DNA of 2,754 nt from a virus (taxonomy: Duplodnaviria > Heunggongvirae > Uroviricota > Caudoviricetes): positions 1 to 2,754 of IMG/VR virus record IMGVR_UViG_2698536313_000022. One strand, given 5' to 3'. The stretch's first letter is position 1. Each line of letters begins with the position of its first letter. A program made the translations under genes and the position numbers. This document shows positions 1 to 2,754 of this stretch, piece by piece. A model generated the notes under the pieces. It made no database searches, had not been told where the DNA came from, and was given only the letters and a program-made list of their open reading frames with translations.

Positions 1-201
1 TTACCCATTGGCGCGGCTTAAGAGCTTATTTTTGAATTCACAATGGTCACGATATAACCATCTTGCTCGACCGTGGATAACTTTGGCTTTTGGCAGGTCG
101 CCGGACTTAATCCGGTCGTAGATGAAGGTTTTACCAAAGCCAGTATCGGCCATGATGAATTTCAAATCAACCAGTGAATCAGGTTGTAGTTCGTGTTGCA
201 T
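1..201 (-). CDS. AlpA/Xis-like excisionase-family DNA-binding protein (66 aa, complete)
   Basis: Complete ORF from ATG (201..199) to TAA (3..1), with GGAG 9 nt upstream of the ATG. The translation ...LVDLKFIMADTGFGKTFIYDRIKSGDLPKAKVIHGRARWLYRDHCEF... fits the winged-HTH signature recalled for the phage AlpA / P4 Vis family (TG-x-S/G-x-x-T-IY-x-x-I-x-x-G-x-F/LP-x-P/A-x-K/V-x-G-R-x-x-W-x-x-x-E/D-x-x-x-F/W). Its position at the end of an ea-type module is where xis/alpA normally sits next to int. Confidence 0.7.
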   Translation of the reverse strand: MQHELQPDSLVDLKFIMADTGFGKTFIYDRIKSGDLPKAKVIHGRARWLYRDHCEFKNKLLSRANG

Positions 202-240: not shown

Positions 241-270
241 GGCAAGAAAAAACCGCCATCAGGCGGCTTG
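241..270 (-). terminator. Rho-independent terminator downstream of the zinc-ribbon gene
   Basis: Read on the minus strand: 5'-AAGCCGCC-UGAU-GGCGGUU-3' followed by UUUUUUCUU. The core is a 5-bp GC stem (CCGCC/GGCGG), extendable by G-U and A-U pairs, with a 4-nt loop and a T-tract. It lies about 64 nt after the stop at 333. The plus-strand reading has a poorer T-tract, so it is mainly unidirectional. Confidence 0.65.
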
Positions 271-332: not shown

Positions 333-512
333 TTAGCTTTTTTCGTTGCCTTCGCGTTCTTTATTAATTTTGACAAAATCGTTTTTACCACGCTCTCCAA
401 ATGCGTCTTTAGAGTCGTTGTATCCGCAATCGCAGCACACATAATCATCAGACCATCCACGCATTGTTTTTTCTTTTGCAATATTTCCAGAACCGCATTT
501 TGGACAAGACAT
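333..512 (-). CDS. Small stand-alone zinc-ribbon protein (59 aa; CPKC-x22-CCDC), function unknown
   Basis: ATG at 512..510 is preceded by GGAGG with a 7-nt spacer (minus strand ...TTTGGAGGTAGTGATATG); stop TAA at 335..333. Translation MSCPKCGSGNIAKEKTMRGWSDDYVCCDCGYNDSKDAFGERGKNDFVKINKEREGNEKS has two Cys pairs spaced as a zinc ribbon and a Lys/Glu-rich tail. The TTG start at 545 given by the ORF track has no Shine-Dalgarno and is probably not used. Hand count gives about 39% GC for this gene versus roughly 53-57% in sampled stretches of the neighbouring 609..1256 gene. Confidence 0.65.
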   Translation of the reverse strand: MSCPKCGSGNIAKEKTMRGWSDDYVCCDCGYNDSKDAFGERGKNDFVKINKEREGNEKS

Positions 513-608: not shown

Positions 609-1256
609 TCAAAGGGGAGGCTCTGGTAGCGGCATCCAGTGTGACGGTTTCCACGACGCACCAGGAATTATCCACCCATCATTAGCGTCAGGATGCCCCG
701 GGATGTAAGTCGCCCATTTCATTCGCCAGTCACCTTTCCTGTCAAACTCCCTGGCAACAAGAACGGCTGTTTTGGTATCCGGCATTCGCTCACTACAGCT
801 TATCCAACCATCAGGAGTTACCGGAGAGTTGCCGGGTTCTTTAATGTGCAAGCGAGGCTCACCATCTTTTGGCTCAGGCCACTGGCGCTCCATGTTGATC
901 TTCAATTTATCTTCCATAGCAACGTTAATTTCAGCATCGCTGATGCCAGCACGGCGCTGTGCATCCCACAACAGAAACTGCATATCAGCCCACTCGCTAA
1001 GATCGTCTGGTTCGGCTGCGGCTTCCAGTGCCTCTTTTGAGAGATGTTTCAGCGGACCAATGGGGCCAACGCAGCCAAATGTGGAGTCAGACCATTTGGC
1101 ATGCTCGTGGCGAATCTGTTCGCGTTCCAGTGATGCCAGCGCAATTCGTGCCAGTTCTTCCGCTTCTTCTGCTGGCAGTACAACGTTGCTACCCGGTCCG
1201 TATGTTTCGCGCCACTGCTGGATTGTCAGCAGGCGTTCTTTGGTAATAGTGGTCAT
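609..1256 (-). CDS. Phage DUF550 (dATP/dGTP pyrophosphohydrolase-like, MazG-type all-alpha NTP-PPase) / DUF551 fusion protein (215 aa)
   Basis: ATG at 1256..1254 lies 2 nt after the upstream gene's TAG (minus strand TAGCTATG), with AAGGTG 6 nt upstream. The N-terminal about 130 aa are acidic and helical (EEAEELARIALASLEREQ..., LSEWADMQFLLWDAQRRAGISDAEINVAMEDKLKINMERQ), consistent with prophage DUF550 proteins. The C-terminal about 70 aa (DGWISCSERMPDTKTAVLV...WMPLPEPP) match the DUF551 motif pattern I recall from enterobacterial prophages. Assignment is by pattern recognition, not a computed alignment. Confidence 0.75.
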   Translation of the reverse strand: MTTITKERLLTIQQWRETYGPGSNVVLPAEEAEELARIALASLEREQIRHEHAKWSDSTFGCVGPIGPLKHLSKEALEAAAEPDDLSEWADMQFLLWDAQRRAGISDAEINVAMEDKLKINMERQWPEPKDGEPRLHIKEPGNSPVTPDGWISCSERMPDTKTAVLVAREFDRKGDWRMKWATYIPGHPDANDGWIIPGASWKPSHWMPLPEPPL

Positions 1257-1258
1257 AG

Positions 1259-1450
1259 CTATTTCACCTTAATCTCAACATTTCGCAGCTTTAGCTCTAC
1301 TGGCAGGTCTGACTTTCCGGTTAATGCTAATGCGAGATTTTCTGGAGTAATGAGAGCAGTTATTGTTTTCCCCCTCGCCAGACGAATAATCATTCGTATC
1401 TCGCAATCGTCACATGCTCCCGGTCGAACAATTGAGATTTGTCCGTTCAT
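1259..1450 (-). CDS. Hypothetical small protein (63 aa), no family recognised
   Basis: ATG at 1450..1448 is preceded by a near-consensus Shine-Dalgarno (minus strand AAAGGAGAGTGAGATG, 6-nt spacer) that overlaps the last codons and TGA stop of the upstream Ead-like gene (TGA-G-ATG). Stop TAG at 1261..1259 is 2 nt before the next start. Translation MNGQISIVRPGACDDCEIRMIIRLARGKTITALITPENLALALTGKSDLPVELKLRNVEIKVK. The longer 117-aa version in the ORF track would overlap the Ead gene out of frame and lacks an RBS. Confidence 0.6.
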   Translation of the reverse strand: MNGQISIVRPGACDDCEIRMIIRLARGKTITALITPENLALALTGKSDLPVELKLRNVEIKVK

Positions 1451-1451
1451 C

Positions 1452-2222
1452 TCACTCTCCTTTGATGCGAATGCCAGCGGCGCGCTCGGCTTCACTTTGT
1501 TCCCAAAACCACTTGTGAAGCGCCATAAGCTTTTCGTCAATCGGTGCATATTTGCGATTAAAGTAGGCCTGAGCATCTTTCTCAGATTCGTCCGGTAATT
1601 CGCCAGGGCCAAACAGTGTGTTATAAATCCATGCTAGTCCGCTCTTAGCGTCGCCAGTTGCCTGCCATTCGATAATGGCAGCCTGCATGACCAGAATGTT
1701 TTTCCCGATTAACAGGTCCAGTTCTTTGTACCGGTTGCGGATGTATGCATTCTCGCTTTGTAATTTTGCGTTGCGCTTTTCTGAGGCTTCAAGTAACGCC
1801 TGCTTATCGCGTAGCGCTTCTTCCAGTTCAGCAACATGGCATTCGCTATCAATAAGGTTGTTCTCTGCTGCTTCAAGCTCAACACGCAGCTTCCCTACTG
1901 TTAGCGCAATATCCTCGTTCTCCTGGTCACGGCGTTTGATGTATTGCTGGTTTCTTTCCTGTTCATCCAGCAGTGCCAGCACGGTAGCCGGGTTAGCCTC
2001 TGCTATGAATTCAGCGTTTGCATAAGCCTGAGCATCTGATTCAATCAGGCAGTTAACATGACATTCCGCAATCACGCCACCGGGTTCTCCTTTCCATTTT
2101 TGGCAAACAAAAACTCCTGTTAAATTGCCGTGCTGGTTAACAGATGTATGCCCTACGATGTAGCTTCCTTTAGTTGCTTTCTCTGCCTTTTCACGCAGTG
2201 CCTGATAATTAATTTCGCTCAC
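1452..2222 (-). CDS. Ead/Ea22-like family phage protein (256 aa) with central coiled coil
   Basis: GTG start at 2222..2220 overlaps the upstream TGA by 4 nt (GTGA), with AGAGG 6 nt upstream. The N-terminal MSEINYQALREKAEKAT... and the ...ANPATVLALLDEQE... segment resemble conserved Ead/Ea22-like regions. A strongly heptad-like segment follows (LRVELEAAENNLIDSECHVAELEEALRDKQALLEASEKRNAKLQSENAYIRNRYKELDLL), then a distinct C-terminal region. There is no in-frame ATG until about residue 186, so the GTG start is favoured. Confidence 0.75.
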   Translation of the reverse strand: MSEINYQALREKAEKATKGSYIVGHTSVNQHGNLTGVFVCQKWKGEPGGVIAECHVNCLIESDAQAYANAEFIAEANPATVLALLDEQERNQQYIKRRDQENEDIALTVGKLRVELEAAENNLIDSECHVAELEEALRDKQALLEASEKRNAKLQSENAYIRNRYKELDLLIGKNILVMQAAIIEWQATGDAKSGLAWIYNTLFGPGELPDESEKDAQAYFNRKYAPIDEKLMALHKWFWEQSEAERAAGIRIKGE

Positions 2223-2440
2223 TTCGAACCTCTCTGTTTACTGATAAGCTCCAGATCTTGCTGGCAACTGGCACAAGTCCGACAACCCTGAACGGCCAGT
2301 CGTCTTCGTTCATCTATCGGATCGCCACACTCACAACAATGAGTGGCAGATATAGCCTGGTGGTTCAGGCGGCGCATTTTTATTGCTGTGTTGCGCTGTA
2401 ATTCTTCAATTTCTGATGCTGAATCAATTATGTCTGCCAT
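2219..2440 (-). CDS. TraR/DksA-family C4-type zinc-finger protein (73 aa)
   Basis: ATG at 2440..2438, stop TGA at 2221..2219. Translation ...ATHCCECGDPIDERRRLAVQGCRTCASCQ... aligns by eye with the F-plasmid TraR motif CEACGNPIPEARRKIFPGVTLCVECQ (CxxC-x17-CxxC plus the conserved G-P-I-x-E-x-R-R). The Shine-Dalgarno is weak or atypical (AGGGA about 14 nt upstream), so the exact start is less certain than the family call. Confidence 0.8.
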   Translation of the reverse strand: MADIIDSASEIEELQRNTAIKMRRLNHQAISATHCCECGDPIDERRRLAVQGCRTCASCQQDLELISKQRGSK

Positions 2441-2488
2441 CTTTCATTAATCCCTGAATTGTTGGTTAATACGCTTGAGGGTGAATGC

Positions 2489-2518
2489 GAATAATAAAAA
2501 AGGAGCCTGTAGCTCCCT
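2489..2518 (-). terminator. Probable rho-independent terminator after the 71-aa gene
   Basis: Read on the minus strand: 5'-AGGGAGC-UACAG-GCUCCUU-3' running into UUUUUUAUUAUU. The stem is 5-7 bp including one G-U, with a 5-nt loop, and starts about 20 nt after the stop at 2539. The stem is short, so strength is uncertain. Confidence 0.45.
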
Positions 2519-2538
2519 GATGATTTTGCTTTTCATGT

Positions 2539-2754
2539 TCACCGTTCCTTAAAGACGCCGTTCAACATGCCGATCGCCAGGCTTAAATGAGTCGGTGTGA
2601 ATCCCATCAGCGTTACCGTTTCGCGGTGCTTCTTTAGTACGCTACGGCAAATGTCATCGACGTTTTTATCCGGAAACTGCTGTCTGGCTTTTTTGATTTC
2701 AGAATTAGCCTGACGGGCAATGCTGCGAAGGGCGTTTTCTTGCTGAGGTGTCAT
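2539..2754 (-). CDS. Hypothetical small protein (71 aa as seen; start coincides with window edge)
   Basis: ORF with ATG at 2754..2752, the last three bases of the window, and TGA at 2541..2539. Translation MTPQQENALRSIARQANSEIKKARQQFPDKNVDDICRSVLKKHRETVTLMGFTPTHLSLAIGMLNGVFKER has a basic helical N-terminal half and a hydrophobic or amphipathic C-terminal stretch (TLMGFTPTHLSLAIGMLNGVF). The upstream region is not visible, so the true N-terminus and RBS cannot be verified. Confidence 0.5.
   Translation of the reverse strand: MTPQQENALRSIARQANSEIKKARQQFPDKNVDDICRSVLKKHRETVTLMGFTPTHLSLAIGMLNGVFKER

Follow-up and report, generated by a model that had tools for sequence, protein, structure and literature searches.

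The four genes carried on the minus strand between positions 609 and 2440 of the window, which is the whole 2,754-nucleotide stretch of DNA analysed here, are very probably a stretch of the exo-xis early region, in the distal pL operon of a lambda-like E. coli prophage, and not a fixed four-protein system. The exo-xis region, its TraR-like lead gene, the pairing of that gene with ea22 and the variability that follows are already known from lambda and Shiga-toxin phages, and the arrangement is an ordinary one. In the complete genome closest to the window, the genes run on one strand in the order cIII-kil-gam-bet-exo-DUF1317-DUF1382-71aa-TraR-Ead-...-TorI, and the same order from cIII to TorI is found in contigs that are 100% identical to the window. 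The exo-xis core is represented within the window by an orf61-like gene, orf73 and ea22 in that order, with orf60a and orf63 lying outside the window and present in the contigs 100% identical to it. Between ea22 and xis, where the published exo-xis region holds variable genes (PMC8614690), the genes downstream of ea22 likewise differ among loci.

An earlier note on this DNA, made from the sequence alone, had described a four-gene module here. We find all four of its open reading frames on the minus strand, with gene boundaries identical to those in the RefSeq annotation of the closest complete genome, including the GTG start of the Ead gene, and Pfam matches bear out the identities it had given to the genes.

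The genes of the block and their neighbours

The lead gene (2219..2440, minus strand) encodes a 73-residue protein of the TraR/DksA family, the orthologue of lambda orf73 (PF01258 zf-dskA_traR, E 5e-9, 36.4 bits against a cutoff of 24.9; phrog_54), and the product is 97% identical to lambda Orf73 (lambda 30395-30613). Read from the translation, it holds a C4 zinc finger of the form CxxC-17-CxxC (C35, C38, C56 and C59) and an N-terminus, MADIIDSA, with the DxxDxA motif at D3, D6 and A8; this motif was defined as an N-terminal element reaching the active-site region of RNA polymerase (PMC9239242). The protein also matches by sequence the chains of F-plasmid TraR that were solved with RNA polymerase. 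No protein reached any curated NCBIfam cutoff, the best model for TraR being TIGR02419 at 55.6 bits against a 59.7-bit cutoff. Lambda Orf73 binds RNA polymerase and inhibits rRNA and ribosomal-protein promoters, and it increases the yield of phage about 4-fold (PMC9239242); the earlier note was correct in stating that TraR homologues of phages target RNA polymerase.

The second gene (1452..2222, minus strand) starts with GTG and encodes a 256-residue protein of the Ead/Ea22 family (PF13935 Ead_Ea22, E 3.7e-36), with the match extending over residues 2-141, which comprise the N-terminal and coiled-coil signature. The allele is of the Stx-phage type, and positions 1451-2754 of the window are 98.2% identical in DNA to phage 933W; residues 76-156 alone resemble lambda Ea22, at 56%. 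The lambda-type C-terminal domain solved by NMR is absent from this protein, and a search of PDB sequences returned no match beyond spurious hits to repeat proteins, which is consistent with the different C-terminal domains of published Stx-type variants. The ea22 genes are described as mosaic (PMC10834534), and Ea22 is pro-lysogenic (PMC7093339, PMC8614690), so that the link to the lysis-lysogeny choice drawn in the earlier note also holds. As a separate observation, the C-terminal domain of Ead matched a PADLOC model labelled DpdH; PADLOC returned no defence-family match for TraR, the small gene or the DUF550/DUF551 gene.

The third gene (1259..1450, minus strand) encodes a 63-residue protein assigned to phrog_1222. 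It sits as an optional element between Ead and the next gene, and the closest complete genome lacks it. The protein had no match in Pfam, and its 95 protein clusters, drawn mostly from genomes of Enterobacterales and their phages, are all labelled hypothetical. An AF2 model (pLDDT 86) has a beta-beta-beta-alpha-beta topology, for which Foldseek found nothing in the PDB at E 0.001 or better (best E 0.54), and the PDB sequence search was equally uninformative (best E 0.44). Its two cysteines are not conserved among homologues.

The last of the four (609..1256, minus strand) is a three-part gene of 215 codons, comprising an N-terminal module of about 45 residues that is common to many different genes, a DUF550 core (PF04447, dATP/dGTP pyrophosphohydrolase; residues 48-143, E 2e-41, 140.4 bits against a cutoff of 23, positions 1-96 of the 97 in the domain) and a C-terminal DUF551 (PF04448; residues 150-214, E 3e-21). 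The acidic residues E75, E78, E88, D91 and D98 are kept in 71 distinct homologues. By family membership, the DUF550 core is likely to be a (d)NTP pyrophosphohydrolase; within DUF550, published activity is limited to a distant protein from Acinetobacter phage SH-Ab 15497 (PMC12884076). A PDB sequence search returned no solved structure (best E 0.74), and a scan of species-representative genomes with the full protein returned only distant DUF550 cores joined to other termini.

Three further genes lie on the same strand of the window. Upstream of TraR lies a 71-aa orf61-like gene (2539..2754, minus strand; phrog_303), which the earlier note had left outside its block; it matches lambda 30715-30928 with a frameshift in the region relative to the annotated lambda orf61, and it stands 101 nt upstream of TraR in 52 of the 57 usable TraR-anchored loci. 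Downstream of the block by 96 nt is a 59-aa zinc-ribbon gene (333..512, minus strand), named Eag protein in RefSeq and preceded by a strong Shine-Dalgarno (SD) sequence, GGAGG (-10.6 kcal/mol). The prophage ends with a TorI-type excisionase (1..201, minus strand; RefSeq response regulator inhibitor TorI, phrog_66) that adjoins the host dsd genes. No RNA family in Rfam matched the window.

Conserved junctions and exchanged genes

The earlier note had counted four tight junctions; four genes have three, and all three have the spacing that it described. Read directly from the sequence, the TGA stop of TraR (2221-2219) and the GTG start of Ead (2222-2220) overlap as GTGA, the TGA stop of Ead (1454-1452) is separated by one base from the ATG of the 63-aa gene at 1450 (TGAgATG), and the TAG stop of the latter (1261-1259) is separated by two bases from the ATG of the DUF550/DUF551 gene at 1256 (TAGctATG). 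The placement of each SD motif within the preceding coding sequence is likewise confirmed, with GAGAGG for Ead inside TraR (-7.2 kcal/mol against the anti-SD), AAGGAG for the 63-aa gene inside Ead (-9.1 kcal/mol) and a modest AAGGTG for the DUF550/DUF551 gene inside the 63-aa gene (-4.8 kcal/mol). Such spacing is common in lambda, where 32 of 62 same-strand junctions (52%) overlap or leave a gap of at most 2 nt and where tight junctions follow one another in runs of 4, 4, 4 and 8. The tightness of the junctions in the block is no more than the default for such genomes and does not rise above background. Thermodynamic prediction gives the region from -15 to +3 of the three internal starts an unpaired probability of 0.54-0.58, and ribosome-binding sites that are predicted to be mostly unpaired do not indicate strict or obligate coupling.

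The conservation of the four genes was assessed in four IMG/VR sets of 80 nearest-relative loci, each anchored on one of the genes, of which 57, 52, 63 and 77 were usable; many of these loci nearly duplicate one another and some are truncated at contig ends, and the counts are therefore descriptive and carry no phylogenetic correction. All four genes together, in any allele, occurred in 0 usable loci across the four sets. Among 5426 complete E. coli genomes, 4175 hold part of the block and none holds all four genes; a single genome has at least 80% of the block in one place, and it does so without the 63-aa gene. Part of the window is matched by 572 phage records, none of which covers 80% or more of it. 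In phage and E. coli genome matches alike the breakpoints fall at gene and domain boundaries, those of the DUF550/DUF551 gene lying at about 1118-1134, where the N-terminal module ends, and at 778-784, the boundary between DUF550 and DUF551.

What is retained in these comparisons is the junction. TraR is followed by the GTGA overlap in 61 of 70 distinct contexts, in each of which the overlapping ORF, 55-261 aa in length, begins with an Ea22-type N-terminus (MSEIN...). After Ead, a gap of 1 nt is kept in 48 of 57 contexts and leads to no fewer than 12 different genes, and a 2-nt gap follows the small gene in 52 of 62, with downstream ORFs of 68-473 aa. Both the junction geometry and the SD motif reside in the conserved 3' end of the preceding gene, whatever gene comes after. 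Conservation is confined to the 5' junction of orf73 with ea22, and the body of Ead, the small gene and the DUF550/DUF551 gene each vary on their own. The Ead interior (1485-2175) is replaced in otherwise identical prophages: where the flanks are 100% identical, the Ead allele has 135 aa and keeps the terminal codons alone, and in prophages that match the window at 99.7-100% identity elsewhere the interior is a different one. The locus is, in its own right, a clean example of kept junctions with swapped gene interiors. A candidate pattern in which ea22 would often be absent after TraR, drawn from tblastn hits (Ead in 34 of 57 TraR-anchored loci), was rejected by the ORF-level analysis.

These data bear on two readings that would bind particular proteins of the block together. 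The earlier note proposed an unnamed module of four genes with enforced stoichiometry, the products of which would act together, for example in a complex around the RNA polymerase effector, with coupling to fix their ratio. Three successive junctions of at most 2 nt with SD motifs inside the upstream genes, the lack of an internal terminator and the recurrence of the arrangement in several draft assemblies speak for such a module, and in all 10 places among the draft-assembly matches listed the exact DUF550/DUF551 protein has TraR or Ead upstream. Outside the swapped interior of Ead, however, those assemblies match the window at 99.7-100% identity, so that they reflect shared descent and offer no independent support. 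The four genes are nowhere found together in the usable IMG/VR loci or the complete E. coli genomes, the interior of Ead is exchanged between identical flanks, one junction geometry is shared by many different genes downstream, 52% of same-strand junctions in lambda are equally tight, and the internal ribosome-binding sites are predicted to be mostly unpaired. The module is thus unsupported in what is a published region with shuffling genes, and we consider it very improbable; the earlier note had itself named independent occurrence of the four genes as the observation that would speak against it, and this is largely what the IMG/VR, E. coli and Ead-swap data reveal. A narrower partnership would join the 63-aa protein, perhaps as a regulator or chaperone, to the N-terminal module of about 45 residues in the next gene, independently of TraR and Ead. 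In its favor, 58 of 62 distinct contexts have the small gene followed after 1-2 nt by an ORF that starts M(T/N)T(I/L)TKE(R/W), with a remainder that varies between 68 and 473 aa. The same module, however, also occurs directly after Ead where the small gene is missing and is thus independent of the small protein, the association may be a mere conserved junction piece that spans a gene boundary, and the PDB sequence and fold searches gave no structural or functional clue for the small protein. We regard this partnership as quite unlikely.

Transcription boundaries and the upstream region

Two terminator-like hairpins on the minus strand bracket a longer interval than the block. Upstream of TraR, an intrinsic-terminator-like hairpin with a T-run (2491..2530; stem 2518-2500, then TTTTATTATT) is identical to the predicted terminator t2 in the interval between orf61 and orf73 of lambda and phi24B (PMC4195576, Table 4). 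Downstream, a second hairpin (250..269) is almost identical to lambda's predicted t5 terminator (PMC4195576), which makes the 59-aa gene the fifth member of the terminator-bounded interval alongside the four. We found no minus-strand terminator-like site in a scan of 609-2440, and the same region holds a single promoter-like site, within chance expectation; with three promoter-like sites in the promoter scan against 3.7 expected by chance, internal promoters are without evidence. Expression of the genes as a unit, as the earlier note supposed, is therefore plausible insofar as it means co-transcription, but the unit extends beyond the four genes, to the whole pL operon or, at a minimum, to the interval from t2 to t5 including the gene at 333-512.

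Between the 71-aa gene and TraR we also noted a possible 31-aa ORF (2447..2542, minus strand), the GTG start of which overlaps the stop of the 71-aa gene as GTGA and which crosses the terminator-like hairpin to stop 6 nt before the ATG of TraR. Lambda encodes an identical ORF at 30715-30620, and the ORF is intact in 140 of 144 loci. Ribosome profiling of lambda reported a 31-aa peptide in the conserved region (PMC8614690), which we infer to be the product of this ORF. The ribosome site of orf73 itself is predicted to be largely paired.

The hairpins raise the question of whether the interval from t2, with the predicted promoter p1 that overlaps it (PMC4195576), to t5 is a separately regulated sub-operon led by orf73, in which the slots after ea22 would hold interchangeable host-takeover effectors, with a function tied to the position and not to particular partners. 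The bracketing is exact, from TraR through the 59-aa gene; lambda orf73, ea22 and ea8.5 have mRNA levels unlike those of the genes that precede t2, and in phi24B orf73 and ea22 are expressed above orf61, which led the authors to predict p1 (PMC4195576). The lambda cluster orf73-ea22-ea8.5-orf55 is also linked to inhibition of host replication initiation, in work cited in PMC9239242. Against this, p1 is a software prediction, our own minus-strand scan of the t2/p1 region found no sigma-70-like promoter, the published -35 and -10 boxes lie about 19-21 nt apart by count from the sequence, and the possible 31-aa ORF ties the upstream gene to TraR by overlap and so argues for continuity with the upstream operon. 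We view a separate sub-operon as rather unlikely. It is also conceivable, if unlikely, that the units under conservation are the junctions themselves, each made up of the terminal part of one gene, SD motif included, the stop and start and the first codons of the following gene, and that they serve as plug-and-play adaptors that chain incoming genes translationally; the chain might begin with the 31-aa ORF, the translation of which would control readthrough of t2 and expression of orf73 and the genes downstream. A literature search for conserved linker or boundary sequences in lambdoid mosaicism found nothing specific. The 31-aa ORF could bear on the published and unexplained differences in orf73 and ea22 expression between lambda and Stx phages.

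Likely course of expression and relation to known systems

If the four genes belong to the exo-xis region, as we favor, they would probably be co-transcribed from pL in the early phase that follows induction or infection, with N antitermination, and by analogy with lambda this transcription would read through the terminator-like hairpin upstream of orf73. The near-zero spacing is ordinary compaction of a lambdoid operon, which may permit some termination-reinitiation and does not bind these particular four proteins together. TraR would then bind RNA polymerase and shut down rRNA and ribosomal-protein promoters as its 97%-identical lambda counterpart does, Ead may favor lysogeny as the literature on Ea22 suggests, and the four proteins most likely act separately on the host. 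In such a scheme orf73 and ea22 belong to the conserved core, and the 63-aa and DUF550/DUF551 genes to the variable genes that occupy the stretch from ea22 to xis, with recombination presumably exchanging gene interiors and whole genes between the conserved junction pieces. As a discovery the block has little weight, and the useful outcome is a negative one: tight stop-start junctions in lambdoid early operons are no ground for inferring a dedicated multi-protein system. The exo-xis region is under active study for its influence on prophage induction and hence on toxin release.

Comparison of the last gene with the MazZ-type dATP/dGTP pyrophosphohydrolases of phages with Z (2-aminoadenine) DNA reveals the same PF04447 match and the conserved acidic residues, but the domain here has no PurZ or DatZ context and is joined to DUF551 as well as to an N-terminal module of lambdoid type. 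The lead protein closely resembles F-plasmid TraR and lambda Orf73, which act through the secondary channel of RNA polymerase independently of ppGpp: it likewise has 73 residues, DxxDxA and CxxC-17-CxxC, it retains the two extra cysteines typical of lambda Orf73, and it differs from the latter by two to three amino acids.

Comparative studies of HK97, HK022 and HK620 have reportedly described the evolution of lambdoid phages as mosaic and modular, with recombination joints at gene or domain boundaries. The locus is alike in its boundary breakpoints, its short conserved pieces that span junctions and its exchanged interiors, and nothing essential differs.

[quoted passage not shown] Both of the predicted lambda terminators t2 and t5 are matched, and at the DNA level the ea22 allele shares 98% identity with its 933W counterpart. 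Where lambda has ea8.5 and orf55 after ea22, the prophage has the 63-aa, DUF550/DUF551 and zinc-ribbon genes, and its excisionase differs from that of the lambda region in being of the TorI type (KplE1-like), at a prophage end that adjoins the dsd genes. The overall plan is nonetheless that of the published region, a core of orf60a-orf63-orf61-orf73-ea22 followed by variable genes.

Gene junctions and expression of the block

The block at 609-2440 consists of four minus-strand genes: a 73-aa TraR/DksA-like gene orthologous to orf73 (2219-2440; Pfam zf-dskA_traR), a GTG-initiated 256-aa Ead/Ea22-like gene (1452-2222; Pfam Ead_Ea22), a 63-aa gene identified as an open reading frame (1259-1450), and a 215-aa gene (609-1256) matching the Pfam dATP/dGTP pyrophosphohydrolase family (formerly DUF550) and DUF551. 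The Pfam domain calls bear out the gene identities proposed in an earlier note, and the same gene boundaries are annotated by RefSeq in the closest complete genome. Direct reading of the sequence shows that the TraR stop overlaps the Ead start (GTGA) and that gaps of 1 nt (TGAgATG) and 2 nt (TAGctATG) precede the 63-aa and 215-aa genes, respectively; the spacing was thus described correctly, but four genes give three junctions rather than the four claimed. As also claimed, each downstream start has a Shine-Dalgarno-like motif inside the preceding gene, with GAGAGG (-7.2 kcal/mol) in the TraR gene, AAGGAG (-9.1 kcal/mol) in the Ead gene and AAGGTG (-4.8 kcal/mol) in the 63-aa gene. This tightness is not unusual: in phage lambda, 32 of 62 same-strand junctions are overlaps or gaps of at most 2 nt, with runs of 4, 4, 4 and 8 consecutive tight junctions. 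Three consecutive tight junctions are the normal look of lambdoid operons.

A sequence scan found no minus-strand terminator-like site within 609-2440, and the window contains three promoter-like sites, versus 3.7 expected by chance, with a single one in the block. Expression as one unit is upheld to the extent that co-transcription is plausible, but the transcription unit is larger than the four genes, being the pL operon or, at least, the interval from terminator t2 to t5 that includes a minus-strand 59-aa zinc-ribbon gene (333-512; 'Eag' in RefSeq). By partition-function folding, the ribosome sites at the three internal starts are predicted to lie mostly unpaired (0.54-0.58), which suggests that they could initiate on their own and lends no support to the enforced stoichiometry previously proposed.

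Upstream of the block, a minus-strand 31-aa ORF (2542-2447) begins at a GTG that shares bases with the stop codon of the orf61-like 71-aa gene (GTGA), crosses the terminator-like hairpin t2 and ends 6 nt short of the TraR start codon (ATG). Of 144 related loci, 140 retain it intact, and its lambda counterpart (30715-30620) is identical, with an ATG start. Lambda ribosome profiling reportedly picked up a 31-aa peptide from this conserved stretch (PMC8614690), and the ORF may correspond to that study's 31-aa 'orf2313'. Partition-function folding predicts that the orf73 ribosome site is for the most part paired (0.17), and translation of the 31-aa ORF could be linked to t2 readthrough and orf73 expression. 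The orf61 homopolymer is A7 in reference lambda (30715-31024; locus L304) versus A6 in the window (2539-2754). Because this length differs, the annotated 61-aa lambda product ends early and the common part is the MTPQQENALRSIARQANSEIKK segment only; the 71-aa ORF of the window runs on in a frame left unannotated in lambda.

Largely independent shuffling of the four genes

Whether the four genes keep company or occur independently was the question on which the earlier note had staked its module, and a synteny survey was used to address it. Parts of the window are matched by 572 records of the phage collection, and coverage stays below 80% in all of them. Part of the block is held by 4175 of 5426 complete E. 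coli genomes, at a median of two places per genome, and the only one with at least 80% of it in one place lacks the 63-aa gene. For each block protein, the 80 nearest IMG/VR loci were also retrieved and the positions of all window proteins in them determined; among the usable loci of these four sets (57, 52, 63 and 77), none carries all four genes in any allele. In the 57 TraR-anchored loci (at least 97% identity), the upstream 71-aa gene lies at a fixed 101 nt in 52, while an Ead allele of at least 90% identity is found in 3, the 63-aa gene in 2 and a full DUF550 core in 6.

Mosaic breakpoints coincide with gene and domain boundaries, falling at about 2206-2261 (the TraR-Ead junction), 1451 (the junction of Ead and the 63-aa gene), 1236, about 1118-1134 (the end of a ~45-aa N-terminal module of the 215-aa gene) and 778-784 (the DUF550-DUF551 boundary). 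The clearest case is given by prophages (L336, L339 and L343) that match the window at 100% identity over 1-1484 and at 99.7% over 2176-2754, yet carry another Ead interior in place of 1485-2175; the swapped allele is 135 aa long, 41% identical, and retains only the first ~11 and last ~10 residues. Here one allele has cleanly replaced another between junction pieces that are conserved. The four genes do occur in exactly this arrangement, but they were found only in contigs that, apart from the swapped Ead interior, are 99.7-100% identical to the window; because of this near-identity, they share descent rather than reflecting independent co-selection. These data largely refute a dedicated four-gene module, and to take the genes for an unnamed system of enforced stoichiometry is an over-reading.

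Conserved junctions and mosaic proteins

An ORF-level survey counting distinct sequence contexts revealed what is retained. The GTGA overlap follows TraR in 61 of 70 contexts, and the next ORF (55 to 261 aa) always begins with the Ea22 N-terminus, MSEIN. Of 57 contexts after Ead, 48 keep the 1-nt gap, and at least 12 different genes come next; the 2-nt gap follows the 63-aa gene in 52 of 62, where the downstream ORFs are between 68 and 473 aa long and in every case start M(T/N)T(I/L)TKE(R/W). It is the junction that is conserved and not the gene partnership; the Shine-Dalgarno motif and stop/start geometry are part of each upstream gene's conserved 3' end, serving whichever gene comes next. 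Lambdoid phages are generally pictured as mosaics that recombine at short conserved boundary pieces, and the junction conservation fits this picture. The junction-conserving mode of mosaicism is, together with the 31-aa ORF ahead of TraR, a residual point of possible interest.

The 215-aa protein is itself a mosaic built of three pieces: an N-terminal module, a DUF550 core and DUF551. The module (MTTITKERLL; 1118-1256, the first ~45 codons) is 85-97% identical across many downstream genes encoding 68-473 aa with other bodies, such as DUF551-only or DUF550-only, and is a portable N-terminal segment. The NTP-pyrophosphohydrolase-like identity agrees with the Pfam match and with retained acidic residues compatible with a MazG-like pyrophosphohydrolase, but published DUF550 activity lies elsewhere, only in a distant Acinetobacter phage protein (PMC12884076). 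The 63-aa protein, previously called an orphan, is not one: there are 95 protein clusters, all 'hypothetical' and drawn largely from genomes of Enterobacterales and their phages. Conservation does not extend to its two cysteines. Its AlphaFold2 model (pLDDT 86, confident; beta-beta-beta-alpha-beta) has no significant fold match in the PDB, and it may represent an undescribed small fold mainly limited to enterobacterial prophages. Neither protein matches a known defence family.

The C-terminal domain of Ead (residues 145-243; 1494-1790) matches, at E 1.4e-36, a PADLOC model of 127 positions that carries the label 'DpdH', the name of a component of the Dpd system for 7-deazaguanine DNA modification; the model could be mislabelled or contaminated, or the shared domain could be real.

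Correspondence to the lambdoid exo-xis region

In the closest complete E. coli genome, the window sits within a lambdoid prophage with all genes on one strand in the order cIII-kil-gam-bet-exo-DUF1317-DUF1382-(71-aa gene)-TraR-Ead-DUF550/551-Eag-TorI. Draft-assembly contigs 100% identical over all 2754 bases have a like context, their end adjoining host dsd genes. TraR is 97% identical to lambda Orf73 (30395-30613), and in lambda, as here, the orf73 stop overlaps the ea22 start. The terminator-like hairpin at 2518-2500 has exactly the sequence of t2, the terminator predicted in the orf61-orf73 gap of lambda and phi24B, and that at 269-250 matches predicted terminator t5 (PMC4195576). From this combined evidence, the locus is the published exo-xis region. 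The Ead gene is of the Stx-phage type (1451-2754 is 98.2% identical to 933W DNA), its likeness to lambda Ea22 being confined to the central coiled-coil part, and ea22 has been reported as mosaic (PMC10834534).

The activities attributed to the pair are documented as well. Orf73 has been shown to bind RNA polymerase and, without ppGpp, to inhibit rRNA and r-protein promoters; it also slows the growth of the host and increases phage yield about 4-fold (PMC9239242). TraR here carries all motifs defined in that study (DxxDxA, CxxC-17-CxxC and two extra cysteines); Ea22, tied earlier to the lysis-lysogeny choice, is pro-lysogenic (PMC7093339).

The 59-aa gene, which has the strongest Shine-Dalgarno motif of the window (GGAGG), fills the slot of lambda ea8.5, whose product is a zinc-binding protein; the 59-aa protein shows weak, sub-threshold likeness to the Lar restriction-alleviation and HVO_2753-type zinc-finger families. 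The excisionase gene at 1-201, at the very end of the prophage, is TorI-type (KplE1/CPS-53-like) and adjoins host dsd or sucrose-utilisation genes in the flanks of two compared loci (L001 and L335), which contain no adjacent integrase gene. The recombination module is therefore split across both prophage ends, in contrast to the xis-int pair of lambda. The region itself is already known: it is the exo-xis region, with a conserved orf73-ea22 pair and interchangeable cargo, packed as tightly as the rest of a lambdoid genome.
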